Shown: piece by piece, positions 6,671 to 50,540 of the stretch | Position numbering within the stretch: the first letter of the stretch is position 1 | Layout: the number at the start of each line of letters is the position of its first letter | From: an uncultured bacterium | GTDB taxonomy: Bacteria > Hinthialibacterota > Hinthialibacteria > Hinthialibacterales > Hinthialibacteraceae | Direction of reading: 5' to 3' | DNA length: 64,000 nt | Assembly (NCBI GenBank): GCA_964556895.1 | Contig: CAZKYC010000006.1 | Location: 25,099-89,098, forward strand | Notes under the pieces: model-generated | Databases searched by the model: none | Told to the model about the DNA's origin: nothing | What the model saw: only the letters and a program-made list of their open reading frames with translations | Program-made: the position numbers and the translations under genes

Positions 6671-7855
6671 GTGTTTCATCTCTCACAGCGTATGGAATCC
6701 GTCCAGGATCCGGTGATCCCCATCATCGGGCGAATGGTGCGTGAGAATCGCGGTACAATCAATTTTGGCCAGGGCGTCGCCCATTACCCTCCGCCCCAGG
6801 AAGCGCTCGACGCCTACAATCAATTTCTCAGCGACCCAGCGAACCATAGATACCACGCGGTTGACGGCATCCCCCAATTCAAACAAACCTTGATCAACAA
6901 ACTTCAGTCTGAAAACAACATCAAACTGAACACCGCTAAGGGCGGCAAAGCGCGCCTATGCGTCACCGCAGGCGGCAATATGGCGTTTTTACACGCGGTG
7001 ACAGCGATTACTGACCCCGGCGATGAGATCATTGTACTCACGCCGTTCTATTTCAACCACGAAATGGCGGTGCGAATCGCTGATTGCAGGCCAGTCTTCG
7101 CCGCGACCGATGAGAATTTTCAGCCTGACATCGACGCAATTTTAGACGCAATCACTGAGCGGACGAAAGCGGTCCTCACGGTGTCGCCAAACAACCCGAC
7201 TGGCGCGGTGTATCCTGAGTCAACCCTACGCGCGATTAACAAACTGTGTCTTGAACGCAGCATCTATCACATTCACGATGAGGCCTATGAGTATTTCACC
7301 TACAACGACGCTACCCATTTCTCGCCGGGCTCAATTGATCACGCAAACCAACACACCATTTCGCTCTTTTCGTTCTCAAAGAGTTACGGCTTCGCGGGGT
7401 GGCGCGTCGGGTATATGACCTTTCCCGCCCGGCTCGAAACCGCTATTCATAAAATTCAAGATACCAACCTCATTTGCCCGCCGATTGTCTCTCAATACGC
7501 CGCGATGGGGGCGCTTGAAGCCGGGGGAACATATTGCAAACAGTTTTCGCGATCCTACAATACAGTTCGAGGCCAATTGTTGAACGAGTTTGAAGAGTTA
7601 CACGACAAAATCACAATTCCACCAGCTGACGGCGCATTTTATTTCTTCCTAAAGATCAACACATCCATGGCGCCGATGGATTTAGCCAAGCGCCTGATTC
7701 TTGAACATAAGGTTGCGTTGATGCCCGGCCACGCATTCGGCATGGATAAGGGCTGCTACCTGCGCTTATCGTATGGCGCGTTGGACGCAGCCCAGGCGGC
7801 AGAAGGCGCCTCCAGGCTCAAACAAGGGTTACGCACACTATTGAGGAGCGATTAA
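6671..7855 (+). CDS. Class I/II pyridoxal-phosphate-dependent aminotransferase
   Basis: 394 aa; SPNNPTG block and SFSKSYGFAGWRVGY (PLP-lysine motif); GTG start 6 nt after AAGAGG. Confidence 0.85.
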   Translation: MFHLSQRMESVQDPVIPIIGRMVRENRGTINFGQGVAHYPPPQEALDAYNQFLSDPANHRYHAVDGIPQFKQTLINKLQSENNIKLNTAKGGKARLCVTAGGNMAFLHAVTAITDPGDEIIVLTPFYFNHEMAVRIADCRPVFAATDENFQPDIDAILDAITERTKAVLTVSPNNPTGAVYPESTLRAINKLCLERSIYHIHDEAYEYFTYNDATHFSPGSIDHANQHTISLFSFSKSYGFAGWRVGYMTFPARLETAIHKIQDTNLICPPIVSQYAAMGALEAGGTYCKQFSRSYNTVRGQLLNEFEELHDKITIPPADGAFYFFLKINTSMAPMDLAKRLILEHKVALMPGHAFGMDKGCYLRLSYGALDAAQAAEGASRLKQGLRTLLRSD

Positions 7856-7857
7856 CC

Positions 7858-8637
7858 GTGGACGTATTCGGCGTGCAACTTAACATGCAATGGGAAAACA
7901 AACCCGCGAATTATGAGAGAGTAAAATCGCTGCTGGCCCAACAAACCATTACGCCAAATAGTTTGATTGTCTTGCCTGAGATGTTCGCGACTGGCTTCAG
8001 CATGAACCTGACTGATATTCACGAACCTGACTCCGGCCCAACCGCGCAGTTTTTAAGTACACTCGCTCAAGACTCCAAATCTAGTGTTGTTGGCGGTTGT
8101 GTCGGGCTTGGCGACGATCAAAAAGGGCGCAACCAGGCGCTTTGTTTTGGCCCCGATGGCGGCGAAGTTGCGCGTTACACCAAGATGCACCCATTCACTT
8201 TCGGCGGCGAAACCAAACACTACACCCCTGGAGATGAGATCATTCTATTTCAATGGGGCGAATTCACCGTGGCGCCGTTTATTTGTTATGACTTGCGGTT
8301 TCCTGAAATTTTTCGTCATGCGACGCAGATGGGCGCCAATGTTTTTCTTGTGATTGCCTGTTGGCCTCAGGCGCGCGACGCCCATTGGATGGCGCTGCTG
8401 CGCGCCCGCGCTATTGAAAACCAATCATATGTGGTTGGCGTAAACCGCTGTGGCAGCGACCCTAAACTGAAATACTCAGGCCGCAGCCAGATGATTGATC
8501 CGATGGGAAATGTGCTATCTGATGCACAAAGCGAAGAAACCATCATCAACGCAAAACTTGATGTTGGCATGTTGAACCAATATCGAAGCGACTTCCCCGT
8601 CTTACAAGATATACGTGAAGAGTATCGCCCTGAATAG
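7858..8637 (+). CDS. Carbon-nitrogen hydrolase, omega-amidase (YafV/Nit)-like
   Basis: Glu-Lys-Cys triad context: VLPEMF, YTKMHPF, FICYDLRFPE; GTG start 2 nt after the aminotransferase stop, GAGGAG upstream. Confidence 0.8.
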   Translation: MDVFGVQLNMQWENKPANYERVKSLLAQQTITPNSLIVLPEMFATGFSMNLTDIHEPDSGPTAQFLSTLAQDSKSSVVGGCVGLGDDQKGRNQALCFGPDGGEVARYTKMHPFTFGGETKHYTPGDEIILFQWGEFTVAPFICYDLRFPEIFRHATQMGANVFLVIACWPQARDAHWMALLRARAIENQSYVVGVNRCGSDPKLKYSGRSQMIDPMGNVLSDAQSEETIINAKLDVGMLNQYRSDFPVLQDIREEYRPE

Positions 8638-13180: not shown

Positions 13181-14452
13181 TCAGCGCGGGATTGTCTTGC
13201 CATGTGGGTCGACTTCTGGGTGTTCCATCTCACGGTCTAACTTTTCAGTTAAGTCTGGGGTGATATGGTGTTCGACGCGGTCAGCCGGATCGTGTGTATG
13301 GTCAGCGGCGTAGCCAATGCCTTCGAGGTATGATTCATACAAACGGTGGCGTTTGATGAGTTCGATGGCGTCGTTATTGCCTGACTTGGTCAGTTCAAAT
13401 TTCAAATTGCCTTCTTCTAATAATCCTTTTCGCACCAACCGCCGGGCGGTCTTCTCCGCATCGGGCAACAGCCATTGCTGGGCCTCGCTGATATCCATCA
13501 CGCTGAATGGAAGAGCAAAGCCCGCTTCAACCTGGCGCCCCGCCCAAAGCAATACGTCTTCTTCAGCGACCCGGTTTGACAGGTTTCGTCTCGACAACCA
13601 GCGGGTAAACACGCCGTGTGTTGGAGAGAAAACCAATGCCACAGCAAACAACAGCCCTGACACAGCGCCCATTGCTCCGGCGATCGAACTATCAAGCCAA
13701 ATCGCTGAGAAGAAACCCAGGATCGAAGTCAGCGAACCCGCCAGAACCGAATAGAGCAACATCAACGACAAGCGGTCAGTCAATAAATAGGCTGTCGCGG
13801 CAGGCGCGATCAACATCGCCACGACAAGTATGACGCCGACGCTTTCAAACGCGCCCACCGTGGTGACCGCAACCAACGTCATCAACAGATAGTGCATCAC
13901 TGTGACGGGAATCCCCACCGCCGCCGCCATCGCCGGGTCAAACGCGCACAATTTGAATTCTTTGTAAAACAAACTCACGACGACACTATTGAGCAACAAC
14001 AAACCGCCGTTGACCCATAACGCTCTGGGGCCGAGATAGAACTCACCCAGCACAAATGAATCAAGCGGAGTCAGCGCAATCTCGCCCTCTAATACGCAAT
14101 CGGTATCCAAGTGGACGCCTTCGCCAAACAGAGAAACGCCAATCACGCCAAGGGCGAACAGCGCGGTGAACGTGACGCCAAGCGCCGCGTCATGTTGAAC
14201 GCCGCCGCTATTGAGGGTTTGAATAATGAATGTCGTTAAAATTCCAATCAGGGCCGCTCCAAGAAACATCCAGAAGATCGACATTGAGTTGCTCAACAAA
14301 AATGCGATGACGATTCCCGGAAGAACCGCGTGGCTGATGGCGTCACCCAACATCGCCATACGGCGCAGCACCAAAAAGCAGCCCAGCATCCCACAGGCGG
14401 ACGCAGCGAAGGCCCCGGTTAAGATGATCCAAAATCCACTTAAGAAATCCAT
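13181..14452 (-). CDS. Metal ABC transporter permease (ABC-3/TroD-like) fused to a C-terminal DtxR/MntR-like domain
   Basis: About 285 aa of permease helices, then a cytoplasmic tail with a winged helix-turn-helix (wHTH)-like segment (AEKTARRLVRKGLLEEGNLKFELTKSG), KRHRLYESYL and His/Asp/Glu-rich HDPADRVEHHI..DPHGKTIP. Confidence 0.85.
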   Translation of the reverse strand: MDFLSGFWIILTGAFAASACGMLGCFLVLRRMAMLGDAISHAVLPGIVIAFLLSNSMSIFWMFLGAALIGILTTFIIQTLNSGGVQHDAALGVTFTALFALGVIGVSLFGEGVHLDTDCVLEGEIALTPLDSFVLGEFYLGPRALWVNGGLLLLNSVVVSLFYKEFKLCAFDPAMAAAVGIPVTVMHYLLMTLVAVTTVGAFESVGVILVVAMLIAPAATAYLLTDRLSLMLLYSVLAGSLTSILGFFSAIWLDSSIAGAMGAVSGLLFAVALVFSPTHGVFTRWLSRRNLSNRVAEEDVLLWAGRQVEAGFALPFSVMDISEAQQWLLPDAEKTARRLVRKGLLEEGNLKFELTKSGNNDAIELIKRHRLYESYLEGIGYAADHTHDPADRVEHHITPDLTEKLDREMEHPEVDPHGKTIPR

Positions 14453-14467: not shown

Positions 14468-15751
14468 TTAGGCAGTTGCGATCGGGTGCGCAGTAGGTGG
14501 TCGTTCCAGGTTAAGCCCATGGGTGTTTAATAGACGCTCGAGTTGTTTGACCGTCTCAGGCGCCAAGAAGTGTTCGATCAAATCGGCGTCGCGGTCGACA
14601 TGGTCAGATTCAAATTCTTCTTCGTGCATCAGATACATTTCCCATAAACGGTGGTTGCGGGTCACTTGATAGGCCTGTTCCATGCCGCTTTGCGTCAAAC
14701 GAAATGAGCCGTTTTGTTCTTCGACACATTGTTCGTTCATTAATCTGTGCAGGTTTCTCAGCGCTTGGGCTGGCGTTTGCGACCGCAGTGCGGCGATATC
14801 GTTTAAAGGCGCCCATCCGTCCCAGGAACCGTGTCGTTCAGACCATTCATACAACGAGCGAAGTGCATTCTCTCGAGCGACGCGGCGGCGAAGTTTCCAA
14901 ACCCGAATGCCTTTGGCGACCAATCCACGCGCTGGAGCGAAAAGCAGCGATAGCACAAACATCAACGTCGCCGACAATACGATCCACGGGCCGGTTGGCA
15001 TTCGCGGGGCCAGCGCGCTCAAATACACGCCCAGCGCTCCTGACATGCCGCCGAACAGGGCGGATAGCAAGGTCATACGGTGAAGGCGGTCCGTCCAATA
15101 GCGGGCGGCGGCGGCTGGAGTAATCAACATCGCAACCATTAATACAACGCCGACCGCTTGAAGCCCAATGACGACAATCAGAACGATCAAGATGTTGAGC
15201 ATCGCGTCAAGCCAGGCGGATGAAAACCCTAGACTGTCGGCGAACCCTGTGTCAAAGCAAAGCAGTTTCATTTCTTTATAAAGCAACAACGAGAATACAA
15301 TGACAGCGAAGGCGCAAAACGCCATGATATACACATCGCGTCCGACCATCGCCGCCGCCTGCCCAAAAATAAAGGTCTTCAGGCCTGCTTTGTTGCCGCC
15401 GCTGGAATTCAATATGAATGTCAACAACACAATGCCAATCGCGAAGAAAACCGAGAGAACCAGCCCTAAGGCCGCGTCTTCTTTAATGCGCGAATGGCGC
15501 GTAATGAATTGAATGCAAAATGCGCCCAACATGCCGGCGGCGAGCGCGCCCAACATAAAGGCCGGGATTGAACGTTCGCCAACGATCATGTACGCGACGC
15601 ACACGCCGGGAAGCGCCGCATGGGCCAAGGCGTCGCCTAACAGGCTGCGCTTTCTCAGCATGGCGAAACTGCTGAGGATGCCGCTGCACATACCAAGCAG
15701 GACGCACCCAGCCAACACCCATTGAGCATTAATGTCAGTCAAAAAGTTCAT
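14468..15751 (-). CDS. Metal ABC transporter permease (ABC-3/TroC-like) fused to a C-terminal DtxR/MntR-like domain
   Basis: Permease core followed by ..[70 protein letters not shown]..; 4-nt overlap with the upstream ATPase gene. Confidence 0.85.
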
Positions 15752-22560: not shown

Positions 22561-24549
22561 TTAATCTATCAGCCTCCAATCATCAACAGAGACGGGCAAG
22601 ACGCCGTCTAAATAATCCAGCCGCCGAACGGTAAAGTTCATGATGTAGTCATAGGCGTCGCGAATTTGCCGCCTGCGGCTATTTTGGGTCGCGCCAGTCA
22701 TGGCTTCTTCTAATTTGAGGTCGGCCAGTAGCAATTCTTCATATTGGTCGCAAAGTTCTTGAAGACGCTCGACAGAAAATTTGCGCGTCATTTCACGGCG
22801 AACTCGGCGTTTGTATTCTTCATGAAACGGTTGATGGCTGTGTAATGGGCCCGAGAGATATCCGACAGGTCTACCGCCAACCGGAGACTGCCCGTTTAAT
22901 GGGTAATCAATCGGCATCTTAAAAAACTGGGGAATACTGGCTTCAGAATAGCCAAACGTTTTGTCACAATCCCAGGGGATGCACTCCCACCTGTTAGCGG
23001 GTGCGGGGGCGTGATATAAAAACATATTGTTAAAGAAGCCGTCCCAATTGCCCATCAACACGCCCGCCACCGAGTAGTTCATCACTTTCTCAACATCAAG
23101 ATATTTTCTGAGGTTGACCTCGCGTTGTTCGGCGTTTGAGACGCGAATCGCCTGGTTGAGTTCGGCCAAGTCTAATTCGTCTTCGTCTAAATTGGTTTGT
23201 TTTTGTACTCCGTTGGGTACGTTGTACGCGACCTTATATACATTGGCGTCGCGGTTGCGGTCATTTAAATCTAAGAAATTTTCGTTTGGCTGTTGGACGA
23301 ACAATTGTTGGCGGTGGCTCTCGCCCTGGATGGTGCGATACCAAGCCGAACCCGGCGCCATGACGCCAAAATCGCTAAATATTTGATAACTGATTTGTTC
23401 GATATGAGGGGTATGTGGACCTGAGGTTGTGCCGCCAGAGGGCCGTTCGGGAATCACATTCAGCGTGCGGTTGCCGCGGTATTCCTGGCCTTTCAAAAAC
23501 TTGATCTTCTGGCCGTTTCGGGATGGATACACATTGGCGCCGTCATACACTTCAGGGGGGCCGTCTACTGGCTTGAACACCGCGCCTGGAAATGATGACG
23601 ACCGCGAGTCGGGCAGGTTGCCCAGGATTTGGGAGTAAACCCAAACCAGCGGCAACTTTGTTTCGAGTTCATCGTCGTAAATAAAATACGATTCATACGG
23701 ACGCGCCGCGCCGCGATGAGGCCAGAACACCGTCTCGCCCGAATTGGTCGTCACCTCAAATTTGTATCGCACCAACCACTGTGAACTTTTTGGTGGAACG
23801 CGCACAGAATACGTCACACTTTCGCCGTCAACATTACCGCGGTCCAGAGGATACCGTGTCACGCTGCCTGACCGTGATGTATTTAGGGGTTGCAAGTGCA
23901 TTCGCACACTGCTGATCAGCGACGCACCAGTGAAGGTTGCTTCGACAGTGACGAAATCTGTTGAAGTCGGGTTTTGAGGCGAATGGGTCACGCCATCTAA
24001 AAAGAGACCGGGCGCTTCGCCAAAGACAGAATTTCGCGCGCCTGGAGTTCCATTCGAACTGAGTGATGTACGCCAGTTTCTGTGGTCGGTTGAAAGCAGA
24101 GATGGGTCGATCTTCTCAAGCGATGCGCCGTAGCCGTCAGGCCCGATTGGCCATGGGACGGTATCGGAATAGTCAAACTCATCAACGATTTCACCGTTTG
24201 AATTTCGCAAAGTGATGCGCTCACCGCTGTCAGCCAATTTGCCAATATATGGAGCGCTGACAACATTGGCGTTGCGAAAATTTATATGGTTGGGATCGCG
24301 GGCAATGAGGAGATACTCATTGCCGCCAATCAGCGTCCGGCGTGGAAACTCAAACAACACTCCCTCAGTAAATAAATACCCATCCAGGCGAATGATGTTG
24401 TTGCCAGTGTTGTACAACTCAATGAATTCTTGAACGCCGTCTTCGGGCGGATTATAATGAATCTCATTAATGACGACTTCAGAGTGAGTGAGTATCCCTA
24501 TGGTTAACATCATTAGGGCGCAAGGCCCCAAAAGACGACCCAATCGCAT
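22561..24549 (-). CDS. Secreted CotH kinase-family protein with N-terminal lamin-tail domain (LTD)
   Basis: Signal peptide, LTD signature VVINEIHYNPPEDGVQEFIELYNTG, long CotH-like C-terminal region (..NWDGFFNNMFLYH..WDCDKTFG). Confidence 0.75.
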   Translation of the reverse strand: MRLGRLLGPCALMMLTIGILTHSEVVINEIHYNPPEDGVQEFIELYNTGNNIIRLDGYLFTEGVLFEFPRRTLIGGNEYLLIARDPNHINFRNANVVSAPYIGKLADSGERITLRNSNGEIVDEFDYSDTVPWPIGPDGYGASLEKIDPSLLSTDHRNWRTSLSSNGTPGARNSVFGEAPGLFLDGVTHSPQNPTSTDFVTVEATFTGASLISSVRMHLQPLNTSRSGSVTRYPLDRGNVDGESVTYSVRVPPKSSQWLVRYKFEVTTNSGETVFWPHRGAARPYESYFIYDDELETKLPLVWVYSQILGNLPDSRSSSFPGAVFKPVDGPPEVYDGANVYPSRNGQKIKFLKGQEYRGNRTLNVIPERPSGGTTSGPHTPHIEQISYQIFSDFGVMAPGSAWYRTIQGESHRQQLFVQQPNENFLDLNDRNRDANVYKVAYNVPNGVQKQTNLDEDELDLAELNQAIRVSNAEQREVNLRKYLDVEKVMNYSVAGVLMGNWDGFFNNMFLYHAPAPANRWECIPWDCDKTFGYSEASIPQFFKMPIDYPLNGQSPVGGRPVGYLSGPLHSHQPFHEEYKRRVRREMTRKFSVERLQELCDQYEELLLADLKLEEAMTGATQNSRRRQIRDAYDYIMNFTVRRLDYLDGVLPVSVDDWRLID

Positions 24550-24742
24550 GGACTAAACCCCTAAGATCGTTTTATTTGATTAAGTATACCTAAATCAAAA
24601 CACTATCACAATAATACGCAAACATCAGGCGGAAATTCTCGCTTGTTTCTTCGGCAATTTTCTCCCCTCCCTCTTGCCGCCTTGGTTTGCAGGCCTGCGG
24701 CCTGCACCGCAAGATTAAATTGAAAATCGCCTGATTGTTTAA

Positions 24743-24790
24743 GCCCCCCTTTTTAAGGGGGCTGTCCGCCGCTGGCGGACAGGGGGGATC
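24743..24790. repeat. REP-like composite palindromic element, copy 2
   Basis: GCCCCCCTTTTTAAGGGGGCTGTCCGCCGCTGGCGGACAGGGGGGATC; two adjacent hairpins, similar to 8921-8969. Confidence 0.6.
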
Positions 24791-24956
24791 ATGTGCACCC
24801 AATAACAACATTTGCATTGCTCCCTAAAAGAGGCAATACGAATAGACAGATATTCAACCTGTATTTACGCTAAGGATTACTTGTTGAATCAATCTAGACA
24901 ATTTTCTCTCACTTGTTTTATACTCATAAAACCATCATCCGTAAAAGGCAAATATA

Positions 24957-25751
24957 ATGAACGCCAGAGACGCCGCTGTCATCGCCTGCCGCTTGCTCGC
25001 AGTTTACATTGTTTTCGAAGCGCTCAACATTCACACGAGAACCTTCTACTTGGCAAACATGAACCCAAATTCCCAGCCCAATGATTTTCAGCTGTTGGTG
25101 ATTCCAGTCTTTGTCTTGATAGGGATTTATCTGTGGTGGGACGGCGGCAAACGAATTTCGAGGTTGCTCGCAAATCCAGATGAAGACATTCAAACTGCGC
25201 TAAATGCACAACAATGGGTTTGTCTTATTCTAAGTTTGATGGGATTCTATTTTCTCGTCAGTTCAATAACTTCCATCTCCAACAATCTATTTGTATTGGT
25301 ATCTCGAGCAGCGAATACATCCCAATTTGCGAATGCGAACCCGTTGGGGAATTGGTATGTATTTTCATTATTGAGTGGATTGTCTTTACCCTTTTTGGGC
25401 CTGATGCTCCTCATCTTTTCGTGGCCGTTATCGAAGGCAATCGTTTATCTTCAAACATTTCAGTATTCCGACCAGAAGGCGTCATCCACATTAACCACTC
25501 AAGCGCTGGCCTTAAGCCTGTTGGGAATCTATTTAATATCAAGAGTGCTTCCACAAATCATACAATACATCTCAGTGATTTATATGAATCCACAACAGAA
25601 CCAATCAACGTTTACTTTTTTATCTGTCGGCGCGTGGGTACAACTCTGTTTCGCGCTTGCGTTAACTCTCGGAGCGCGTGGCATCATTGGAATGCTCTAT
25701 ATGCTTCGCGTGTGGGGAAACCCGTTCGCCAAAGAGAGCATAGAAAAGTAA
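24957..25751 (+). CDS. Hypothetical polytopic membrane protein
   Basis: 264 aa, 6-7 hydrophobic helices, AT-rich; no family recognised. Confidence 0.55.
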   Translation: MNARDAAVIACRLLAVYIVFEALNIHTRTFYLANMNPNSQPNDFQLLVIPVFVLIGIYLWWDGGKRISRLLANPDEDIQTALNAQQWVCLILSLMGFYFLVSSITSISNNLFVLVSRAANTSQFANANPLGNWYVFSLLSGLSLPFLGLMLLIFSWPLSKAIVYLQTFQYSDQKASSTLTTQALALSLLGIYLISRVLPQIIQYISVIYMNPQQNQSTFTFLSVGAWVQLCFALALTLGARGIIGMLYMLRVWGNPFAKESIEK

Positions 25752-27329
25752 CTACGGCTTGACCGGGCGGTCGCGATCGTGGTCGACGATGCAGAAAAAA
25801 CCGAATGGCTGGTCTGAATTATTACACAGTTGATGCACCTGCATCGGCTCGACATAGGCGATGTCCATGTAAGCAAGAGGAACCTCTTTGTCGGTGAGTT
25901 TTAATACGCCGCTGCCACGAACGCATATCACGGTATGGGTATGATTGTGTTTCTCCAGGCTGCTTAACCCGTTGGGGCCAATTTCAAAATAGCGCAAATC
26001 ATACGCGGTCTGCTCGCCGCTCTTACCGATCAGCTCACAGCGTGACACGTTTTTAAAGGGCAGTTCGGCGGCTGAGTCTTTATACGCTTCTGGCTGCCTG
26101 CCCTGCCATTTGAACCCTTCGGCGAATTTCAAAAGCGTTTGAACATCGCCCTTTTCTACTGTCGGCAATTCACAGGCCGACGCCAAACCCGCGTCGGGTT
26201 CTTCAAGGCGCTCGTCAAAATTCTTTCTGACTTCGTCCATGAAGGCTTTGGTGCTCATGGCGAGGTCGTCAGAGTGACTGATTAACGCGCCGCCGATTAA
26301 AAAGAGCGTGTCTTCGCCATACTCATGGCCCATGGTGGGGATGTTGTCAAACTTCATGCCGCCTGCTGGCGATGGAAACGCGCTTTTAATATGCGCCATC
26401 GGCTGGCGTAAGCGGTCACAGATATCGTGACAGTCGTCCTGTGTGAACGAAAAGCGCCCGCCGTAGTTGGGGAAGATTGAGACGTCCGCTCCCAACAAAC
26501 GAAATAGCGTTCCTAAAAACACGCCGTGAGAGATGCCGTGGCGGCTGTCGAAGAAGTGTGCGCCTGTGAAGCTAGGGTGGGCCAGGTAACACAACGGGTA
26601 GGTCTCGACTATGTAGCGAAAGGTATCAAGCCCAATCGTGAATGGACAGATTAAGATTGAGAAGATTCCCTGTTGACTGATGAATGTCATCAGTTTGTCG
26701 AGGTCTTCGACCGGGGCCATTACGTTCGGACAGTAGAGCGTCGGGCGGCCTGTTTGTTTCTCGGCGTCGAGCGCCGCCTGGTGGCACATACTCACCCGGC
26801 GCTTAAAATCATCGAACGAACTTTCATGTAAGTTATGGTCGTCTTTAATCAAATCGCCGCCGCCTAACGCAAAGTTGCGCGTCATGTCGGCGAAGGTCTC
26901 ATGTGATGAGCCATACGGCTTCAAAGCAGTCGATAACAACGGGCGGCCATACACACCGAGGCGCTTACGGATACCGTCAATGCCGTGGTTTGGTCCTTTG
27001 AGTTTATCTAAAAACGATTGGGGAAATTTGATATCTGATATGAAAATGTTTTTCTTCAGTGAAATGTTGCCGTAAATCAGATTCAAAAACTGCGGCCATT
27101 GATAGCCCGTATGGTCGATGGGGTATTCGATAACCGCTTCAAACAGATCGTTACTTGACTGGTTTGGTTTAATTGAACGAATCTGGCCAACTACCTGTTC
27201 GCGAAGATGTTCAGGGACCAGTTGCTCTGGCACCTCGACCGTTTGTTCGTAAGCAATATCTTTAGCAATTTGGTCAACCTCAGACGCGCCGCAGGTTAAA
27301 CGGTAGTGAACGATCAAGCCATCAGTCAT
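25752..27329 (-). CDS. RuBisCO-like protein (form IV large-subunit homologue) fused to a C-terminal cupin domain
   Basis: 525 aa; RuBisCO-large motifs with substitutions (STALKPYGSS for KPKLG; GGGDLIKDDHNL for GGLDFTKDDEN); residues from about 420 to 525 carry cupin motifs EKHNHTHTVICVRGSG and VEPMQVHQLCN. Confidence 0.85.
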   Translation of the reverse strand: MTDGLIVHYRLTCGASEVDQIAKDIAYEQTVEVPEQLVPEHLREQVVGQIRSIKPNQSSNDLFEAVIEYPIDHTGYQWPQFLNLIYGNISLKKNIFISDIKFPQSFLDKLKGPNHGIDGIRKRLGVYGRPLLSTALKPYGSSHETFADMTRNFALGGGDLIKDDHNLHESSFDDFKRRVSMCHQAALDAEKQTGRPTLYCPNVMAPVEDLDKLMTFISQQGIFSILICPFTIGLDTFRYIVETYPLCYLAHPSFTGAHFFDSRHGISHGVFLGTLFRLLGADVSIFPNYGGRFSFTQDDCHDICDRLRQPMAHIKSAFPSPAGGMKFDNIPTMGHEYGEDTLFLIGGALISHSDDLAMSTKAFMDEVRKNFDERLEEPDAGLASACELPTVEKGDVQTLLKFAEGFKWQGRQPEAYKDSAAELPFKNVSRCELIGKSGEQTAYDLRYFEIGPNGLSSLEKHNHTHTVICVRGSGVLKLTDKEVPLAYMDIAYVEPMQVHQLCNNSDQPFGFFCIVDHDRDRPVKP

Positions 27330-27510
27330 CTATCAACGCCCCTTTTTCATTGAATAAGTGAACGAGTCTAGCATCAGCGATTCAGGCGTAGTAGTGTCAC
27401 TTTTCATTGTTGGTTGTCATTAAAATTTTAGTAACACCAATGTCTGTAAAGAATCATTACAGCAATAATCCAATTTTTTAGCGAATTTTGGGGTGAAACG
27501 GCTAAAACTA

Positions 27511-27577
27511 TTACTGTTTTCTCGGCAAGGATGCTATAATTTAGTTAAATTTAGTCGAGTAGATTGTATGCTATAAT
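27511..27577 (+). promoter_or_regulatory. Two tandem extended -10 promoters
   Basis: TGCTATAAT at 27532-27540 (with TTACTG at 27511-27516) and again at 27569-27577, upstream of the ATG at 27691. Confidence 0.55.
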
Positions 27578-27690
27578 ACGATTTTATTTCGAGGAATTGC
27601 TATATCATTTCAACGTTTGCATTCATTTGGTTTGGAAGCCTGATTGTAATGCAATGAATTGAGTAGCCTCCTAGACAGATTGCGGGAGCT

Positions 27691-28842
27691 ATGTCGACAG
27701 TGATTGCCCATGAGATCTTATATGACGAGTCGGTCTGCCAACATTTAGACCGGGTCTGCGTCGCACGCACGTCATTCGAAGAAATGACGGGCACCCCCCA
27801 CCCATGGGAAGTCATGAACGGCGCCATAAATTCCGTCCAAAATCAATTTCTTCAAATTGAAAACGATCTGAGCGCCAACCATAAAGATGGCGACTTGACT
27901 TGTGTCAAGACCGCGCAGGGCGCGTTTTGGATCAACAAAAACGGGGTTGATTCGGTTATTGATGAGCTAAACCACCATATTGGCCGGGTGTCTCGCAAAG
28001 GCCCTGTTCCTCTCTGGAATTACACGTCGATTGAACTGTTCACCCAGATTTTGGATAACCTGAAACGGCTGATCATTACCACTAGCCATGACCGGGTTGA
28101 ACTCAAGCGAATCGAAACATTGTTGAACGGAACAAGCAACTCCGTTCTTCAAGAGCTCAACAAAGCCAACACGGCGCTTGATGAATTATTGGGCAAGATC
28201 AAACAACATGCGCCTCACGTTTCGCTGGCCAGCCAGCCTGACGTGGTTTTGTATGAACGCGCCCGAATCACGTTTGACCTGCTCCAAAAACACCTCAAAA
28301 CCGAACAACAACTTGGCTATGACCGCGCGACGCTAAAACAGGCGTATGATTTACTTGAATCGCGGTGCGGGTTCAAAATCAAAAATTTCCGCCAACGAAT
28401 TCAGGCGTTCATGCTGGCGTTTCGTGATGAATTGCGTCAAAGCGAAATTCTCCAACTGTTGTTGTCTAGCCGCTGGGGACTCACACTATCATCTCTTGAG
28501 AAACCCTCAGAGTCGCTAACCGGCCTGATTCGGATTATTCGAAAAGAAACCGACTGGTTTTCGGCGTTTGTCTCTTCGCGCGATACCGAATTAGGCCCAT
28601 CCCCTTCAGCAATCCACGCTCTGGCGATGGCTGAGAAAGCTGACTATCAGTTCACTCATGGCAAGCCCAGCGAAGAAGAACTCGCGGGCCGCGCCCTGAG
28701 CGATGATGAAATTCAACAACTTCTCGCCAGCGACAAAACCGAATCAGAAAATGAGGTTGACGTTGCTGACGCGCCTTCTGGCGCATCCAAGCCAAAGAAA
28801 AGCGCCCACCGAATGGCCTTCACCTCGCGCGGCCGCCGGTAA
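27691..28842 (+). CDS. Hypothetical, mostly helical protein with basic C-terminal tail
   Basis: 383 aa; no family recognised; no signal peptide or TM helix. Confidence 0.6.
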   Translation: MSTVIAHEILYDESVCQHLDRVCVARTSFEEMTGTPHPWEVMNGAINSVQNQFLQIENDLSANHKDGDLTCVKTAQGAFWINKNGVDSVIDELNHHIGRVSRKGPVPLWNYTSIELFTQILDNLKRLIITTSHDRVELKRIETLLNGTSNSVLQELNKANTALDELLGKIKQHAPHVSLASQPDVVLYERARITFDLLQKHLKTEQQLGYDRATLKQAYDLLESRCGFKIKNFRQRIQAFMLAFRDELRQSEILQLLLSSRWGLTLSSLEKPSESLTGLIRIIRKETDWFSAFVSSRDTELGPSPSAIHALAMAEKADYQFTHGKPSEEELAGRALSDDEIQQLLASDKTESENEVDVADAPSGASKPKKSAHRMAFTSRGRR

Positions 28843-44163: not shown

Positions 44164-45348
44164 TTAATTGTCTGCAAAGACAAACTCTACCATAGAATAA
44201 TCATCATCAAAATAATCGAGGCCGCGTATCGCCACAATTTTATTCTGGATTGCTTCGAGACCGCTTTTTCCCGGCGCGACCGACTGGTCGACGATTTCAA
44301 CAAAATCAGAAAAACTCATCATCGTTCCATTGGGTTTAAACACTTCATACACGCCGTCACTGAATAAGAGCAATCTTGAACCAGGCTCAACGGTTTTCTG
44401 GTTGGTCTCAAATTCTGAGCGGGCCAGAGCGCCAACGATCACTCCGGTAGACTCCAAGCGGTCGGCGGCTTGGGTGGATGGGCTATACAACAAGGCGGGC
44501 GGGTGGCCCCCACTCGCATACAGCAATTGCCGGGTCGATTTGTCATAGACCCCATACCATATGGTGAAGATCAAGCCATTCTGTTGGTCCATCTGAAACG
44601 TCTGGTTTAGCGCGCCTAATACTTCACCGGGGTGATGAAAATCCACATTGGGCAGCGTGCCTGAACGCAACGCATTCATAATTGACACTGACAACAGCGC
44701 AGCGCTAACGCCGTGACCGACCACGTCTAATAAATAGATCGCAAAATGGTCGTCATCGATCCAATGGTAGCCAAACGCGTCTCCTCCCAACTGAGTTGAT
44801 GGAATAAACCGCCAGTTCGCTTGGATCAAACCGTCTTCAAGCGGCGAAGGGAGAAGTGATGTCACATAGCCAGCGGCGTCAGACAATTCTTCTTCTAATT
44901 TTTGATAGGCCTCGTTGCGCTGAAGCATGTGAATGTAAGCGTTTGAGTGAGAGCGAATTCGGGCGATCAGTTCAATTTTATCGGGCAATTTGACCAGATA
45001 ATCGTTGGCGCCATAGCCAAACGCCTCGGCCTTCACTTTGGGCTCTTCTTTTGTTGAAAGCACGATAACAGGAACATCTTGGGTTGAGACATTGGCCCGG
45101 TAAAATTTCAACAGGGTTAAGCCGTCAATGTCAGGCATGACCAAATCTTGTAAGATCACGGTCGGCGAAATGGTCTCCGCGGTTGGGATCGCTTCAGACG
45201 GGTTTGAACAATAATGAAATTGAATCTTCTTTTCGCCTTCTAACATACGGCGGACCGCCTCGCCTACCATTGGCTGGTCATCCACCAACAGGACAGTGAT
45301 CGGGTGGTCTTCAAGTAACGCCGAATGGCGGTCTTTAGTATGGCTCAT
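44164..45348 (-). CDS. Response regulator receiver fused to PP2C (SpoIIE/RsbU-type) phosphatase
   Basis: Receiver VLLVDDQP..ILQDLVMPDIDG..K; PP2C block GGDAFGYH..LLDVVGHGVSAAL..LLLFSDGV. Confidence 0.85.
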   Translation of the reverse strand: MSHTKDRHSALLEDHPITVLLVDDQPMVGEAVRRMLEGEKKIQFHYCSNPSEAIPTAETISPTVILQDLVMPDIDGLTLLKFYRANVSTQDVPVIVLSTKEEPKVKAEAFGYGANDYLVKLPDKIELIARIRSHSNAYIHMLQRNEAYQKLEEELSDAAGYVTSLLPSPLEDGLIQANWRFIPSTQLGGDAFGYHWIDDDHFAIYLLDVVGHGVSAALLSVSIMNALRSGTLPNVDFHHPGEVLGALNQTFQMDQQNGLIFTIWYGVYDKSTRQLLYASGGHPPALLYSPSTQAADRLESTGVIVGALARSEFETNQKTVEPGSRLLLFSDGVYEVFKPNGTMMSFSDFVEIVDQSVAPGKSGLEAIQNKIVAIRGLDYFDDDYSMVEFVFADN

Positions 45349-46373
45349 TCATTCACCTTTGGTTGAAACTGTTTCGTAATTGAGTCTGCGATTATATCGA
45401 TTGGCAACTCTTCGACCACAGCGCGGATCGCGACAGCAGCCTTGGGCATTCCATACACAACGCAGGTCGCTTCATCCTGCGCCACGGTATGCCACCCCGC
45501 CTCGCGCAGCGCGAGTAACCCGGCGGCGCCGTCTTTCCCCATTCCAGACAATAGCACAGCAGCGCCAGGGACATCCCACTCTAGAGCAGCGCTCATAAAT
45601 AATACATCAACAGAAGGCCGATAGGGCGTCTCAGCCGGTTCGTGTTGAAAGACCAGTTTATGGTCGGGACTAATGGCGGCATGGCGATCGCTGCCCGCGA
45701 GATAGACGCGGTTTGGTTCAATGCTGTCGCCGTCTTTGGCCGTTGAAACTGTTAGGCCCGTCTGGTCATCCAGCCATTTCGCCAAGCCTTCGCTAAATTG
45801 TGAATCGACATGCTGAACGATAACCACCGCGATATTCAAATCCGTTGACAATCCAGAGAGGACTTTCGCGATCGCCTTGGGCCCGCCGGTTGACGCGCCA
45901 ATCAATAGCAGGCCCGGCGCATCGGAGTAAAGCGTAATCGAGTCGGAACGTTGTTTAAACGCGGTTTTGGCTGGAGCGCCTTTGATGATTTTGCGAATGC
46001 GTTCTAACTTGCTATAGAATTCTTCGCTGCCGCTTGAATCGCCGTCCGCCCCAATGACCGGGGTCGCGACTGCGTCGAGGGCGCCGTTGCCCAGGGCTTC
46101 AAAGACTTTGGATACATGGCTGTCGACCGACGAGGTTACCACAATAATGGCGCAGGGCGAGTCGCGCATAATCTCACGCGTCGCTGCGGCGCCGTCTAAC
46201 ACGGGCATGATTAGGTCCATCAAAACGATGTCGGGTTTATCTTCTTTGGTCCGAAGCACCGCTTCGTTGCCGTCGGCGGCGATCCAAGCCACTTCATAAT
46301 CTGGTTTGGATTGAATTAACCGCCGCAGCGCTTCAACAGCGATCATCGAATCGTTCACAATGCCAATGCGCAT
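45345..46373 (-). CDS. cheB: Protein-glutamate methylesterase CheB (receiver + esterase)
   Basis: Receiver MRIGIVNDS..DIVLMDLIMPVLDG; esterase GASTGGP, VQHV, GMGKDG motifs. Confidence 0.9.
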   Translation of the reverse strand: MRIGIVNDSMIAVEALRRLIQSKPDYEVAWIAADGNEAVLRTKEDKPDIVLMDLIMPVLDGAAATREIMRDSPCAIIVVTSSVDSHVSKVFEALGNGALDAVATPVIGADGDSSGSEEFYSKLERIRKIIKGAPAKTAFKQRSDSITLYSDAPGLLLIGASTGGPKAIAKVLSGLSTDLNIAVVIVQHVDSQFSEGLAKWLDDQTGLTVSTAKDGDSIEPNRVYLAGSDRHAAISPDHKLVFQHEPAETPYRPSVDVLFMSAALEWDVPGAAVLLSGMGKDGAAGLLALREAGWHTVAQDEATCVVYGMPKAAVAIRAVVEELPIDIIADSITKQFQPKVNE

Positions 46374-48628
46374 TACTCTACCTCGCCAATCAAATCATCC
46401 ACCGCCTGAAGGAGGGTTTCATCATGGAAACTGCTTTTCGTCAGATAATAATCGGCGCCGGCCTCCAGGCCTCGCCTACGGTCTTGTTCACGGTCTTTGT
46501 ACGACACAATCATAACTGGCAGCGATTTTAAACGCTCATCCTGTTTCATTCGCTCGACTAGTTCAAAACCATTTAAACGCGGCATGTCGACATCGGTGAC
46601 AACCAGGTCAAAGTCGCTGCGCCGCAGGGCGTTCCAGCCGTCGATTCCATCGACCGCGGTTTCGACAAAATAGCCATTGTTCTGCAAGAGTTGCCGCTCA
46701 ACTTCGCGGACGGTCAATGAATCATCGACAACCAACACTCTCTTTTGCACTTTTTCAGATAGCGGTTGGTCGCCCTGGTCAATCTTCTTCAACCGTCCCC
46801 CGCTTAGGATGTCGTCTATCGTGCGGAGCAAGTCATCGACATCAAGAACCAATGTCGGCGCACCGTCGTCTAACAGCGACACGGCGCTGATGTCAGCCAC
46901 CTTGCCTAAGCGTGGGTCGAGCGGGCGAATTACCAGCTGGCGAACCCCAATCACCCGGTCAACCACCATCCCATAGGAATGAAAACGGTCGCTCAATAAC
47001 ACAACCGGCCATTGGTCTTCATACTCACACGACTCATCGAGTTCTAACGCCTGCCGGGCTGAAACCAAACCGATATGTTGATCATGAAACGTGACGAACG
47101 GCTGGTCTTCTACACGCCGTATCTGTTTGCGCTCGACGTTAATGACCCGGTTGATACGGGCGACCGGAAAGGCGTAAGGCTCGCCAGCGATTTCTACCAA
47201 TAACGCCCTGACGATAGACAAGGTCAGCGGCAACTGAAGCTCAAAGCGCATGCCCTGCCCCGGCGTGGAAAATGCGCGAACCAACCCGCCAACTTCACGG
47301 ATGGCGTTATGGACGACATCCAACCCAAAACCGCGTCCTGAGATTTCGGTCACTTTGTCAGAGGTTGAAAACCCAGGCAGAAACAGAAACTCCATCAGTT
47401 CCGCCTCTGTCAGTTTGTTGGCCATTTCTTCGGGCGCGAGGCTTTTTTTCACCACCTTGCGGCGGATGGAACCATACCCGATTCCGCGCCCGTCGTCTTG
47501 AATTTCTATGTTCAAAAACCCTGAGCGGTGAGAGGCGGTTAGTTGAACGGTTCCCTCTTCGGGTTTGCCCGCGGCCAAGCGCTCATGTGGAGGTTCAATG
47601 CCATGATCGACTGCATTACGGATTAAATGGTTAAGCGGCGATTCGATTTTTTCTAGTATGTCGCGATCAACTTGAGTGTGATGGCCAATAATTTTGAACT
47701 TGACTTTCTTGCCCAAACTTCGGGATATGTCTCTCACCATTCGAGGGAACGGGCGGATGCCGTCAGTAAATGGCCGCAGTTTGCTCGCGACCACGCCGCG
47801 GTAGAGATTGTTCGACGTGTTTACAGTACGGCGGGCGTGGAGTTCGAAGTCGTTATACAATTCAGTAATCGCTTCATGGCATTCACTCAGTTGGTCAGAA
47901 ATTGATTGCAATGAATACGAATACAACTCGGCGTTGGGGCTTGATTGGATTGACTCGCCTAGACGCTCTACCTGGGCGGCGATGTCGACTTGAGTGGAGC
48001 GCAACTTGAGCAGTGAGTCAGAAAAGGGCCGTAACCACCGGGTTTCGACAAGTGTTTCACCCGCAAGGCCTAACAGCCGGGTCAAATGTTGTTCTGATAC
48101 GCGAACGAACCGGTCTTGGCCGCTGCGGGTTGTTTCGGAATCCACTGTGTTGTCATCTCGGTTTGGATCGGTCTCTTGCGGCCCATCAGAACCAGCCGGT
48201 TCATTTTTGGGTTGAGTGATTTGAAATTTTGGGTCGCGCAGTTTGGTGATGCTTTCTTCAATTTCATGAGCGTGCGCCTGTTTCCATTGCTCAAAATCGC
48301 CGGCTGTTGCTTTGGCGATCTGGGCCAGCTGGTCAACACAAGTCAACAACAGGTCGCTGGCGGCGGCGGCGGGCATCGCGTCTTGTTCGATGGCGGCGCT
48401 AAACATGTCTTCCATCGCGTGAGCCAGTTTCTCAGCAAGACCGACCTGGACGATGCGCGCCGCGCCTTTGAGCGAATGAGACGCTCGCATCAATAACCGC
48501 AACAAATCAGGATCGTCAGACCCGTCTTCGATTTTGAGCAGGCCGTCGCTGAGCGAAGAGGCGTGGGTTTCGACTTCTTGGCGAAACAGGTCAAGCATTG
48601 AAAATTGGCTGAGGTCGTCGGCGTTCAA
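46373..48628 (-). CDS. cheA: Hybrid chemosensory histidine kinase CheA with C-terminal receiver (WspE-like)
   Basis: Hpt HSLKGAARIV, kinase HLIRNAVDHGIE / DDGRGI / GRGFGLD, CheW-like domain, receiver VLVVDDSLTVRE..DLVVTDVDMPRLNG. Confidence 0.9.
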   Translation of the reverse strand: MNADDLSQFSMLDLFRQEVETHASSLSDGLLKIEDGSDDPDLLRLLMRASHSLKGAARIVQVGLAEKLAHAMEDMFSAAIEQDAMPAAAASDLLLTCVDQLAQIAKATAGDFEQWKQAHAHEIEESITKLRDPKFQITQPKNEPAGSDGPQETDPNRDDNTVDSETTRSGQDRFVRVSEQHLTRLLGLAGETLVETRWLRPFSDSLLKLRSTQVDIAAQVERLGESIQSSPNAELYSYSLQSISDQLSECHEAITELYNDFELHARRTVNTSNNLYRGVVASKLRPFTDGIRPFPRMVRDISRSLGKKVKFKIIGHHTQVDRDILEKIESPLNHLIRNAVDHGIEPPHERLAAGKPEEGTVQLTASHRSGFLNIEIQDDGRGIGYGSIRRKVVKKSLAPEEMANKLTEAELMEFLFLPGFSTSDKVTEISGRGFGLDVVHNAIREVGGLVRAFSTPGQGMRFELQLPLTLSIVRALLVEIAGEPYAFPVARINRVINVERKQIRRVEDQPFVTFHDQHIGLVSARQALELDESCEYEDQWPVVLLSDRFHSYGMVVDRVIGVRQLVIRPLDPRLGKVADISAVSLLDDGAPTLVLDVDDLLRTIDDILSGGRLKKIDQGDQPLSEKVQKRVLVVDDSLTVREVERQLLQNNGYFVETAVDGIDGWNALRRSDFDLVVTDVDMPRLNGFELVERMKQDERLKSLPVMIVSYKDREQDRRRGLEAGADYYLTKSSFHDETLLQAVDDLIGEVE

Positions 48629-49302
48629 TAGACGCTCCGTTTCAAGGCTTCGAAAAGTTTGCTTTCATCCAACAGCCCAACAATATCGCCGTGGTAATTG
48701 ATTAACCCTGTGGTGAACGGTTTGGATGACTTGGCCACCGTTGACGGCGGCGCCTGTATCAACGTGGATGAATAACGATGGACGCCAAGAATTTCGTCCG
48801 CCGGGAACGCCCAGCGTTGATCCTGTTGAACGATGACCGCGATTCGAGAATAGATTGACCGCGAAGTTTTCATTCCATCGCAACGGTCTTGAGTGATCCC
48901 CAATATCTGCGCCAATGAGACGCAGAGTTGGATTTCGCCCGCGAGATTGGCCAACCCTAACACTCCTGGGCTTCGCATATGAGGAATTCGGTGAAACGGT
49001 TGTGACTCGTATACCTGGTGAAACGCCTGGGCGCTGATAGCAAGTTTTTCATGGCCCAGCCGAAAGACCACCACCGAACTGGGTTTCTGTACGGTGGAGC
49101 CTTTTTCGAATTCGATAAACCGCCCTGCTTCTTCGATATAGTCTTGAGGCAATTCGCGATTCAACAAGCTGCGTCCTGAGGATGAATAGATAGGGCAGTT
49201 GTGACAATGATTGTATTCAGCGAGTTCTGGGCATGAACGGTCGCCCATAACGCCGATTCGGCCCCAACAGCCTTGAACGTCGGCTTGATGAATGCGGCTC
49301 AT
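48625..49302 (-). CDS. CheW-like coupling protein with Cys-rich N-terminal extension (WspD position)
   Basis: CheW fold from about residue 75; N-terminus CWGRIGVMGDRSCPELAEYNHCHNCP (four Cys, two His). Confidence 0.8.
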   Translation of the reverse strand: MSRIHQADVQGCWGRIGVMGDRSCPELAEYNHCHNCPIYSSSGRSLLNRELPQDYIEEAGRFIEFEKGSTVQKPSSVVVFRLGHEKLAISAQAFHQVYESQPFHRIPHMRSPGVLGLANLAGEIQLCVSLAQILGITQDRCDGMKTSRSIYSRIAVIVQQDQRWAFPADEILGVHRYSSTLIQAPPSTVAKSSKPFTTGLINYHGDIVGLLDESKLFEALKRSVY

Positions 49303-50540
49303 TTCAACACCGCCGTTTCTATTGAATCTGATTTCGAAGCGTCAACACGTTTCAGGCGGCGGCGAAAACGCAACGCAGAACTCTCGTCGCCATTCTGTTG
49401 GCTCAACAACGCCATTTGCGCTAGCGCGCCTTCATGCCCCGGCTCTAAAAACAGCGCTTTTTGGTAAGACGCTTCGGCGGCTTGAGTCTCATTTAACGCC
49501 TGTTGAACAAGGCCATACATGTAATAGGCTTCGGCGTTTGGCGTTTGAGACAGGATGAAGTTTTCGGCGGCGATTCGCGCTTCATTGAGCCAGCCCCGGT
49601 TAGAAAGCGACTGGATGGTTTCAAGCGTCGGCGCGAATGGACCAATCACACTCGCTGCTTTTGGGACATGCCGTGTCGATGGTTTCGCGGGCATTGGCTT
49701 TGACTGGCAAACAGTCGAAGCGGTTTTGGGGGCCATGGTCGGTAGTGGCTGAACCGGAGGGTTGGCTTCTCTTCGGCGGTAGACAAACGCCAATGGTTCG
49801 CGAATGGGTTCAAAACGGTCTGTGATCGAGTGAAGCGCTTCGACGGCGCCGACAAACACCAACCCGCCCGGCGCTAACATGCGGTCAAGAGTTTGCACAA
49901 CCTGCTTGCGCGAGGGCGCGTCTAAATAGATCAATAGGTTTCGGCAAAAGATCACGTCATAGGGTTGTTTGTTCTCGCCAAAGGTTGGGTCAAGCAGGTT
50001 GCCCCACTCGAAATGAACCAGCGGGCGGTAGGGTTCACGCAGGCCGTAACTCCCACCGTTCTGCTCAAAATACCGGTCATGATTGGGGACAGCGTGTCGA
50101 AATGAGTTCGGGCGGTATACCGCTTCTTTCGCTCTCTGAAGCGCGCGCAGGCTAATGTCGAATCCATCAATGTGAAATTCGCTTGGTTTGTACTGATTCT
50201 CCAACAATGCGATTGCAATCGAGTAGGGTTCTTCCCCTTGAGAGCATGGGACGGAAGCGACTCGCAAGACAGACCCTTTGGGGCGCTTTTGCGTCCACGT
50301 TTTCAAGTATTGAAATGGCGCCTGGTCGCGAAAGAACCAGGTTTCAGGCACGACCGCTTCTTCAATCAAACGCTGGCGTTCATCTTCGGATGAGTGCAGC
50401 CGGGCCAAATATTCGCCTTCGTCTGAAATCTCACGCGCGCTCAAACGCCGTTGTATGGCGCGGTCGACCAGCTCGACGCCAATCGAATCAGGATCAAGGC
50501 CAATCTCTTTGGCCAACCAATCTTTGACGCGGTTCATCAT
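49299..50540 (-). CDS. cheR: CheR-type chemotaxis methyltransferase with C-terminal TPR repeats (WspC-like)
   Basis: ETWFFRD, SVPCSQGEEPYS SAM-binding region, IFCRNLLIY; TPR tail AEAYYMYGLVQQALNETQAAEASYQKALFLEP. Confidence 0.85.
   Translation of the reverse strand: MMNRVKDWLAKEIGLDPDSIGVELVDRAIQRRLSAREISDEGEYLARLHSSEDERQRLIEEAVVPETWFFRDQAPFQYLKTWTQKRPKGSVLRVASVPCSQGEEPYSIAIALLENQYKPSEFHIDGFDISLRALQRAKEAVYRPNSFRHAVPNHDRYFEQNGGSYGLREPYRPLVHFEWGNLLDPTFGENKQPYDVIFCRNLLIYLDAPSRKQVVQTLDRMLAPGGLVFVGAVEALHSITDRFEPIREPLAFVYRRREANPPVQPLPTMAPKTASTVCQSKPMPAKPSTRHVPKAASVIGPFAPTLETIQSLSNRGWLNEARIAAENFILSQTPNAEAYYMYGLVQQALNETQAAEASYQKALFLEPGHEGALAQMALLSQQNGDESSALRFRRRLKRVDASKSDSIETAVLK

Follow-up and report, generated by a model that had tools for sequence, protein, structure and literature searches.

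A RuBisCO-like protein fused to a cupin domain: a widespread family predicted to act in the methylthioadenosine-isoprenoid shunt

RuBisCO-like proteins (RLPs) and small cupin proteins have consecutive roles in the methylthioadenosine (MTA)-isoprenoid shunt. In Rhodospirillum rubrum and Rhodopseudomonas palustris these are stand-alone proteins, the first acting as a 5-methylthio-D-ribulose-1-phosphate (MTRu-1-P) isomerase and the second as a 1-methylthio-D-xylulose-5-phosphate (hereafter MTXu-5-P) methylsulfurylase (PMC5893883, PMC4958253). The in vivo MTRu-1-P 1,3-isomerase of R. palustris is RPA2169, a DeepYkr RLP whose gene neighbours RPA2170 (PMC5893883), and the MTXu-5-P methylsulfurylase of R. 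rubrum is Rru_A2000 (PMC5893883, PMC4958253, PMC4334135), an enzyme that requires reduced sulfur and uses glutathione as its in vivo co-substrate (PMC4334135). North et al. noted that Meiothermus, Nitrococcus and Halorhodospira carry the pair 'in a similar gene organization' (PMC4958253). Fusion of consecutive methionine-salvage enzymes, one of them a cupin, has a precedent in Tetrahymena MtnBD, although this eukaryotic protein joins unrelated domains, a class II aldolase-type dehydratase and an acireductone dioxygenase (ARD), and serves another branch of the pathway (PMC3698126). Here we analyse a gene from an uncultured bacterium of the Hinthialibacterota (GCA_964556895.1, contig CAZKYC010000006.1, positions 25,099 to 89,098; these 64,000 nucleotides are referred to as the window) that encodes an RLP and a cupin domain in a single polypeptide.

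We consider it likely that this protein is a bifunctional MTRu-1-P 1,3-isomerase and MTXu-5-P methylsulfurylase of the MTA-isoprenoid shunt. The RuBisCO-like N-terminal domain is predicted to convert MTRu-1-P to MTXu-5-P, a reaction in which DeepYkr-type RLPs also yield MTRu-5-P, and the C-terminal cupin domain to carry out the thiol-dependent dethiomethylation of MTXu-5-P to 1-deoxy-D-xylulose 5-phosphate (hereafter DXP). Overall, the by-product MTA would be recycled into an isoprenoid precursor and methanethiol. The data show which domains are present, that the frame is intact, that the predicted catalytic residues are conserved and how split and fused forms are related; we infer what the enzyme acts on, what it makes and any channelling from one site to the other. 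We found no description of an RLP-cupin fusion in the full-text literature, in agreement with the initial annotation of this DNA, which knew of no characterised example; a mention in the 2012 primary papers (Erb 2012 or Warlick 2012), which were outside the scope of these searches, cannot be excluded.

The fused gene and its two domains

The fusion gene is complete and occupies positions 25752 to 27329 of the window on the minus strand, with an ATG start and a TAG stop at 25752-25754 in the open reading frame (ORF) listing, and encodes 525 amino acids (aa) without interruption. The initial annotation had placed the gene correctly and its strand is here corrected to minus. Its view of an RLP and a cupin in one polypeptide is borne out by a single intact ORF in which both Pfam models exceed their cutoffs, and the four motifs that it quoted are present at residues 135-142 (ALKPYGSS), 156-167 (GGGDLIKDDHNL), 459-474 (EKHNHTHTVICVRGSG) and 493-503 (VEPMQVHQLCN). 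A form IV RuBisCO-like domain (residues 1-375, 26205-27329) is followed by a variable linker modelled with low confidence (residues 376-403, 26121-26204) and by the cupin domain (residues 404-525, 25755-26120), all on the minus strand. This placement of the junction replaces the interval 26050-26200 suggested for it.

Independent data establish that the fusion is real and did not arise in assembly. Window positions 24133-28503 recur with 0 mismatches over 4371 nt in a Logan contig (L001) from a separate assembly. A 70%-identical ortholog in GCA_016125385.1 (L002), located in a syntenic neighbourhood, aligns ungapped over 525 codons at identical length; its nucleotide identity is 66-70% across the RLP and cupin domains and 55% across the linker. 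In addition, the best 120 matches from a search of 5.8 billion proteins all cover 98-100% of the query and contain both Pfam domains, and the same architecture occurs in 50 genomes. The open frame, which the initial annotation had proposed to check by looking for a frameshift or stop, is therefore upheld by independent assemblies and by deep conservation.

The N-terminal domain is recognised by Pfam RuBisCO_large (PF00016) over residues 116-361 (E 9e-21, 74.8 bits against a cutoff of 30.1). Its top sequence match in the PDB is 3qfw ('Rubisco-like protein from R. palustris'; 215.6 bits, 1.5e-62), followed by MtnW enolases (130-140, maximum 139.7), form III RuBisCO (114-122), Photo RLPs (about 100) and 3nwr (58). 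The full-length AlphaFold (AF2) model has a predicted local distance difference test (pLDDT) score of 86.9, and its top fold match is again 3qfw, with a target-normalised template modelling (TM) score of 0.93 and a root-mean-square deviation (rmsd) of 2.0 Å; across RLP and RuBisCO structures the target-normalised TM scores are 0.71-0.93. Models for bona fide RuBisCO did not reach their cutoffs (form III, 133.7 against 497; PRK04208, 138.8 against 438). In a neighbour-joining (NJ) tree the fused N-terminal domains, the split RLPs and 3qfw form one clade that is separated by a long branch from MtnW. The N-terminal domain thus groups with R. palustris RLP1 (RPA2169), and not with MtnW, Photo-type RLPs or true RuBisCO, and is best described as a predicted DeepYkr-type RLP that appears nearer to RLP1 than to other RLP or RuBisCO clades.

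The active site carries the same signal. Three positions are common to the N-terminal domain and 3qfw and differ from MtnW: GN88 (GK in MtnW), KDDH165 (KDDE) and NYGGR292F (SPYGSV). Conservation was counted in an alignment of 168 fused homologs, in which N88, K162, D163, D164 and R292 are invariant and residue 165 is His in 151 and Gln in 17. In a BLAST alignment to an active-site stretch of spinach RbcL, K137 aligns with the first KPKLG Lys and K162 with the Lys that is carbamylated, while D164 pairs with Asp203 and H165 with Glu204. The latter three lie in the GGGDLIKDDHNL motif (26829-26864, minus strand), where H165 replaces the Glu of RuBisCO and MtnW. By manual alignment, and in RuBisCO numbering, we take R295 to be replaced by P252, H327 by I285, K334 of loop 6 by R292 in the GGRF motif (26451-26462, minus strand), and S379 by A322; all four positions are conserved across the 168 homologs. 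Such substitutions at catalytic residues appear incompatible with carboxylation. The reading of the KPKLG motif in the initial annotation stands for the retained first Lys. It fails for the second, which was thought to have become a diagnostic Tyr: the K177 position aligns to a one-residue gap, and residue 139 is variable in the family (R in 83, M in 29, V in 22 and K in 21 of the 168), so that Tyr at this site is not diagnostic. The Pfam and NCBIfam survey found no small subunit (rbcS), carboxysome, prk or other Calvin-Benson-Bassham genes, an absence noted earlier for the vicinity of the gene that holds across the whole window.

The C-terminal domain matches Pfam Cupin_2 over residues 447-514 (E 6.5e-7, 29.4 bits). 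When searched alone against the PDB it retrieves 3ibm (Hhal_0468, 2e-27), 3jzv (Rru_A2000, 8e-19) and 3kgz (R. palustris, 1e-17), with generic cupins at 1e-4 or worse. The domain-only AF2 model (pLDDT 84.8) has the same three structures as its best folds, in the order 3kgz, 3jzv and 3ibm and followed by TM1459 and DddK, and superposes on 3kgz with TM scores of 0.77/0.80 and an rmsd of 1.8. The expectation that this part would fold as a cupin is therefore supported, and the nearest folds are those of the Rru_A2000 family. All positions conserved at 95% or more among fused and stand-alone cupins are retained in this protein (W, YK, RYF, E.H.H.H, RG.G, HQ, GF.C.V and RD.P), and none of them varies among the 168 homologs; E459, H461, H463, H465, H499, C513, R519 and D520 are included here. 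The predicted metal-binding motif E459-K-H461-N-H463-T-H465 (25935-25955) and the GFFC motif with C513 (25791-25802) both lie on the minus strand, as does H499 (25833-25835), the fourth predicted ligand. The metal-motif residues and the Cys align with counterparts in 3jzv, 3kgz and 3ibm, and an equivalent of C513 is also present in every split cupin. In an alignment to TM1459, E459, H461 and H465 fall on three of its His residues, which we take to be the Mn ligands His52/54/58, with H499 presumably matching His92. As the sole Cys conserved family-wide, C513 is a candidate for the catalytic nucleophile of the methylsulfurylase, and we regard it as a lead. An active-site Cys reportedly displaces the DXP enolate and yields a methyl-disulfide intermediate (Warlick 2012).

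From split pairs to a fused family

The relationship between the fused protein and its stand-alone counterparts was examined in 68 related loci from species-representative genomes, of which 50 contain a single fused ORF and 14 contain two adjacent ORFs. The fused loci, each from a different species-level genome, span about a dozen phyla. They include Planctomycetota (Planctopirus hydrillae, Schlesneria, Scalindua and Brocadiaceae), Nitrospirota (Ca. Magnetobacterium and Ca. Magnetominusculus), Gammaproteobacteria, Fibrobacterota/Chitinispirillaceae, Chloroflexota, Acidobacteriota (Vicinamibacteria), Sumerlaeota, Firestonebacteria, FCPU426 and Bacteroidota. Thirteen of the 14 two-ORF loci encode an RLP of about 370-390 aa and, directly after it in the same orientation, a cupin of about 145-185 aa, with spacing from a few-base overlap to about 100 nt; these pairs occur in more distantly related organisms (Meiothermus, Chitinophagales, Chloroflexia, Hyphomicrobiales and Roseomonas). 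The remaining locus (L019) is split within the RLP domain and is likely a frameshifted fusion gene. The order of RLP and then cupin is identical in the split pairs, the fused protein and RPA2169/RPA2170 of R. palustris. RLP1-type genes adjoin the very cupin family that is fused to the N-terminal domain here.

In an NJ tree of cupins the fused domains form one clade separate from every stand-alone cupin. The tree of RLPs resolves the two forms less clearly, since some few split genes fall inside the fused group. Together the trees suggest either one main fusion event with occasional fission or loss, or noise in the NJ method. The pattern is best explained by the joining of adjacent rlp and cupin genes into what is now a widespread family of its own. 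The fused members differ from their stand-alone relatives in other ways. Rru_A1998 and R. palustris RLP1 stand alone with about 370 aa, whereas the fused N-terminal domains occupy branches of their own relative to 3qfw in the NJ tree and continue into a linker; cupins of the Rru_A2000 family also stand alone, with about 145-165 aa, and need a thiol from outside, whereas the fused cupins are preceded by the linker and its Cys motif.

When the linker-plus-cupin fragment was used as query against 1.84 billion representatives, an exhaustive search (E <= 1e-10) yielded 225 clusters at 50% identity, and among the best 150 there are 27 of at least 490 aa in which the match lies near the C-terminal end. 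Fused proteins account for a substantial part of the family. Short high-scoring cupin matches from this search were considered as fission products and rejected, as most are fragments that retain RLP C-terminal sequence, and several are pieces of fused proteins. Variant architectures were also observed. Three genes (L063:9983-11146, L071:3975-5159 and L083:4368-5537) encode the RLP part only and are nested among or next to the fused clade, and the first of these ends after the opening residues of the linker (FDERLTDP); these may represent secondary loss of the cupin. Two further proteins, P0136 (781 aa) and P0132 (456 aa, a fragment), combine an RLP, a Cys-bearing cupin and another cupin that is degenerate and has no such Cys (GFLLFMN, GLLTWVD), with the modules joined by Gly- and Arg-rich low-complexity linkers. 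Judging by their composition, they may come from a high-GC organism, possibly a eukaryote (an alga).

The length of the linker between conserved anchors is 28-71 aa across the 168 homologs, its sequence is variable, and residues 382-393 have pLDDT values below 50 in the full-length model. Within it lies a conserved motif, S-[A/S]-C-E-x-P, in which S is found in 150, C in 152, E in 145 and P in 135 of the 168 homologs. In the present protein it reads SACELP (26163-26180, minus strand), with C386 at 26172-26174. The linker had been described as short and acidic; the conserved motif makes it more than merely acidic. No SACE-type motif was found at the C-termini of split RLPs or the N-termini of split cupins, and we therefore regard it as a feature of the fusion. 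Of 48 fused genome loci, 12 no longer have the Cys motif (6 of 14 in Gammaproteobacteria and 6 of 34 elsewhere), and a link between this loss and likely glutathione producers is suggestive at most.

A tentative role for C386 is that of a built-in relay or resolving thiol, which would attack the methyl-disulfide on Cys513, free methanethiol and leave an intramolecular disulfide to be recycled by thioredoxin. We think this mechanism rather unlikely on present evidence. An internal thiol is nevertheless attractive because the stand-alone enzyme needs reduced sulfur, and the idea offers a simple and testable account of how the thiol requirement is met. If true, the shunt would not depend on glutathione, and this would help to explain its spread to many non-proteobacterial phyla that are possibly glutathione-free, such as Planctomycetota (with the anammox bacteria), Nitrospirota and Fibrobacterota.

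Weighing the predicted function

The initial annotation had read the gene as a Rosetta-stone fusion of an R. rubrum-type RLP with the cupin that acts next, and the evidence from hidden Markov models (RuBisCO_large and Cupin_2, as it had proposed), fold comparison, clade membership and split gene order agrees with this reading. The new RLP chemistry that it offered as an alternative is not needed to explain the data. Several points weigh against the assignment as isomerase and methylsulfurylase. The N-terminal domain is 31% identical to 3qfw, which equals its identity with MtnW, and the cupin domain is 35-41% identical to the three stand-alone cupins; RLP clades of different function diverge by amounts similar to this range of 31-41%. 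The tree of N-terminal domains is an NJ tree with MtnW as sole outgroup, the Cupin_2 score barely exceeds the Pfam cutoff of 27.2, and 3qfw is presumably RLP1, a correspondence drawn from the labelling of 2qyg as rlp2. The activity of every fused member is a prediction. Finally, the Pfam and NCBIfam survey of the window found none of mtnP, mtnN, mtnK, mtnA, dxr or other methylerythritol phosphate pathway genes, or a sulfhydrylase, and ORF clustering across 80 related loci revealed no recurring neighbour family, with mtnP, mtnN/mtnK, mtnA, dxr and sulfhydrylase genes likewise not recurring near the gene. In R. rubrum, too, mtnP and mtnA (Rru_A0360/0361) lie at a distance from Rru_A1998 and Rru_A2000, which encode the RLP and the cupin (PMC4958253), and the absent context is therefore weak counter-evidence.

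The same points feed the alternative that survives best, namely that the general chemistry is kept but the substrate has shifted to another 5-alkylthio- or 5-deoxy-pentulose phosphate, or to a differently phosphorylated sugar, with a product other than DXP. The modest identity to characterised enzymes, the separation of the fused cupins from all stand-alone cupins, the missing MTA-salvage genes, the variability of residue 139 beside the second Lys of KPKLG and the replacement of His165 by Gln in a minority of homologs would all be compatible with such a shift. We judge it unlikely overall, since the positions conserved throughout the cupin family, including the Cys and the metal motif, are all kept, the three RLP active-site positions agree with 3qfw, the partnership of the two families persists from the split to the fused state, and unlinked salvage genes are not unusual given the arrangement in R. 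rubrum. The likeness to Rru_A1998 and R. palustris RLP1 (probably 3qfw) in KDDH, GGRF and GN, together with the best sequence and fold matches, continues to favour the isomerase and methylsulfurylase assignment.

A second alternative, in which only the RLP is catalytic and the cupin module acts in ligand sensing, regulation or oligomerisation, seems improbable. Weak, sub-threshold Pfam matches to AraC-type ligand-binding cupins (E 0.0066) and the few relatives that consist of an RLP with a linker remnant and no cupin speak for it, but the predicted ligands E459, H461, H465 and H499 together with C513, R519 and D520 are invariant in all 168 homologs, and the nearest structures belong to the catalytic Rru_A2000 family.

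A pairing of the Bacillus type, in which the MtnW enolase would be fused to an MtnD-like ARD, had also been raised initially and is effectively refuted. MtnW (a YkrW-clade RLP, 2oek and 2zvi; 2,3-diketo-5-methylthiopentyl-1-phosphate enolase) has the same fold and the second-best sequence scores, MtnW models are by name the top NCBIfam matches, and both Bacillus enzymes belong to methionine salvage. However, the equivalog models fall far under their cutoffs (NF007095, 210.4 against 409; TIGR03332, 161.1 against 513.6), the active site has KDDH, NYGGRF and N88 where MtnW has KDDE, SPYGSV and K, and MtnW is not associated with this cupin family. The cupin for its part resembles methylsulfurylases: no ARD family is found among its Pfam matches (E up to 1) and no ARD structure among 19 PDB sequence matches. 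The weakest alternative, that adjacent genes were joined by a sequencing frameshift or misassembly, gains from the adjacent split versions in other taxa and is refuted, as far as assemblies allow, by the identical DNA of the second assembly, the ungapped ortholog, the fused ORF common to the best 120 matches and 50 genomes, and a linker motif found only in fusions.

Neighbouring genes and significance of the family

Twenty operon-like same-strand neighbours of related loci were annotated and proved heterogeneous; no conserved partner came to light, and such patterns as there are were confined to single lineages. An Rfam scan detected no known riboswitch, S-adenosylmethionine and Met types included, in the 5' intergenic region, and promoter-like and terminator-like sites near the fusion gene occur at chance level only. 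In four Chitinophagales loci (L070, L075, L076 and L082) a conserved ORF of about 430 aa, which judged by eye looks like adenylosuccinate synthetase, lies directly upstream of the split pair with a few-base overlap, and in two Chloroflexia loci (L077 and L081) a Dak1 dihydroxyacetone-kinase subunit is encoded 15 nt downstream of it.

Within the window, a 264-aa ORF without Pfam or NCBIfam match (24957-25751, plus strand) converges on the fusion gene and ends at 25751, one base before the fusion stop codon (25752); gene calls on the Logan contig include it, but it is missing at the syntenic position in L002. A 383-aa ORF (27691-28842, plus strand) diverges from the fusion gene and has no family match, and it is conserved in that L002 has a 385-aa gene without matches at the same relative position. 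A 994-aa protein (629-3613, minus strand) matches the NCBIfam model 'fused MFS/spermidine synthase' with 105 bits against a cutoff of 40 and has C-terminal tetratricopeptide repeats; should it be active as an aminopropyltransferase, it would generate MTA in this organism. A pyridoxal phosphate-dependent aminotransferase (6671-7855, plus strand; PRK05957 equivalog, 569 bits against 498) is followed after 3 nt by a carbon-nitrogen hydrolase (7858-8637, plus strand), the pair being 18 kb from the fusion gene. They resemble the glutamine transaminase and omega-amidase that have been proposed to complete the classical cycle of methionine salvage.

Other features of the window are further removed from this subject. 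Two tandem ABC-3 (Mn/Zn-type) permeases (13181-14452 and 14468-15751, both minus strand) each carry a C-terminal iron-dependent-repressor metal-binding domain, an unusual permease-sensor fusion, and adjoin an ABC ATPase, a ZnuA-like binding protein and a DtxR/FeoA-type repressor. A chemotaxis-type cluster (44164-50540, minus strand) encodes CheR, CheW, CheB, a response regulator fused to a SpoIIE/PP2C phosphatase and a 751-aa ORF, and is unrelated to the fusion gene.

The fusion brings no new chemistry, as both activities and the pathway are already known from stand-alone enzymes of two alphaproteobacteria. It does add an independent line of genomic evidence for the RLP and the cupin working together as a unit, and the fused family, which is about as diverse as the stand-alone one, constitutes with its Cys-bearing linker a large, phylogenetically broad and apparently undescribed group. 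Current database names hide this bifunctionality: one homolog is labelled 'S-methyl-5-thioribulose 1-phosphate isomerase' by the Joint Genome Institute, and others are listed as 'cupin domain-containing protein', 'RuBisCO large subunit C-terminal-like domain-containing protein' or 'ribulose-bisphosphate carboxylase large chain'. Such labels could inflate false RuBisCO counts in metagenome surveys. In the accessible literature the shunt is attributed to no more than 'some proteobacteria' and a small number of further organisms, whereas the fused family places a likely oxygen-independent route from MTA to DXP and methanethiol in about a dozen phyla, including the anammox Planctomycetota and the magnetotactic Nitrospirota.

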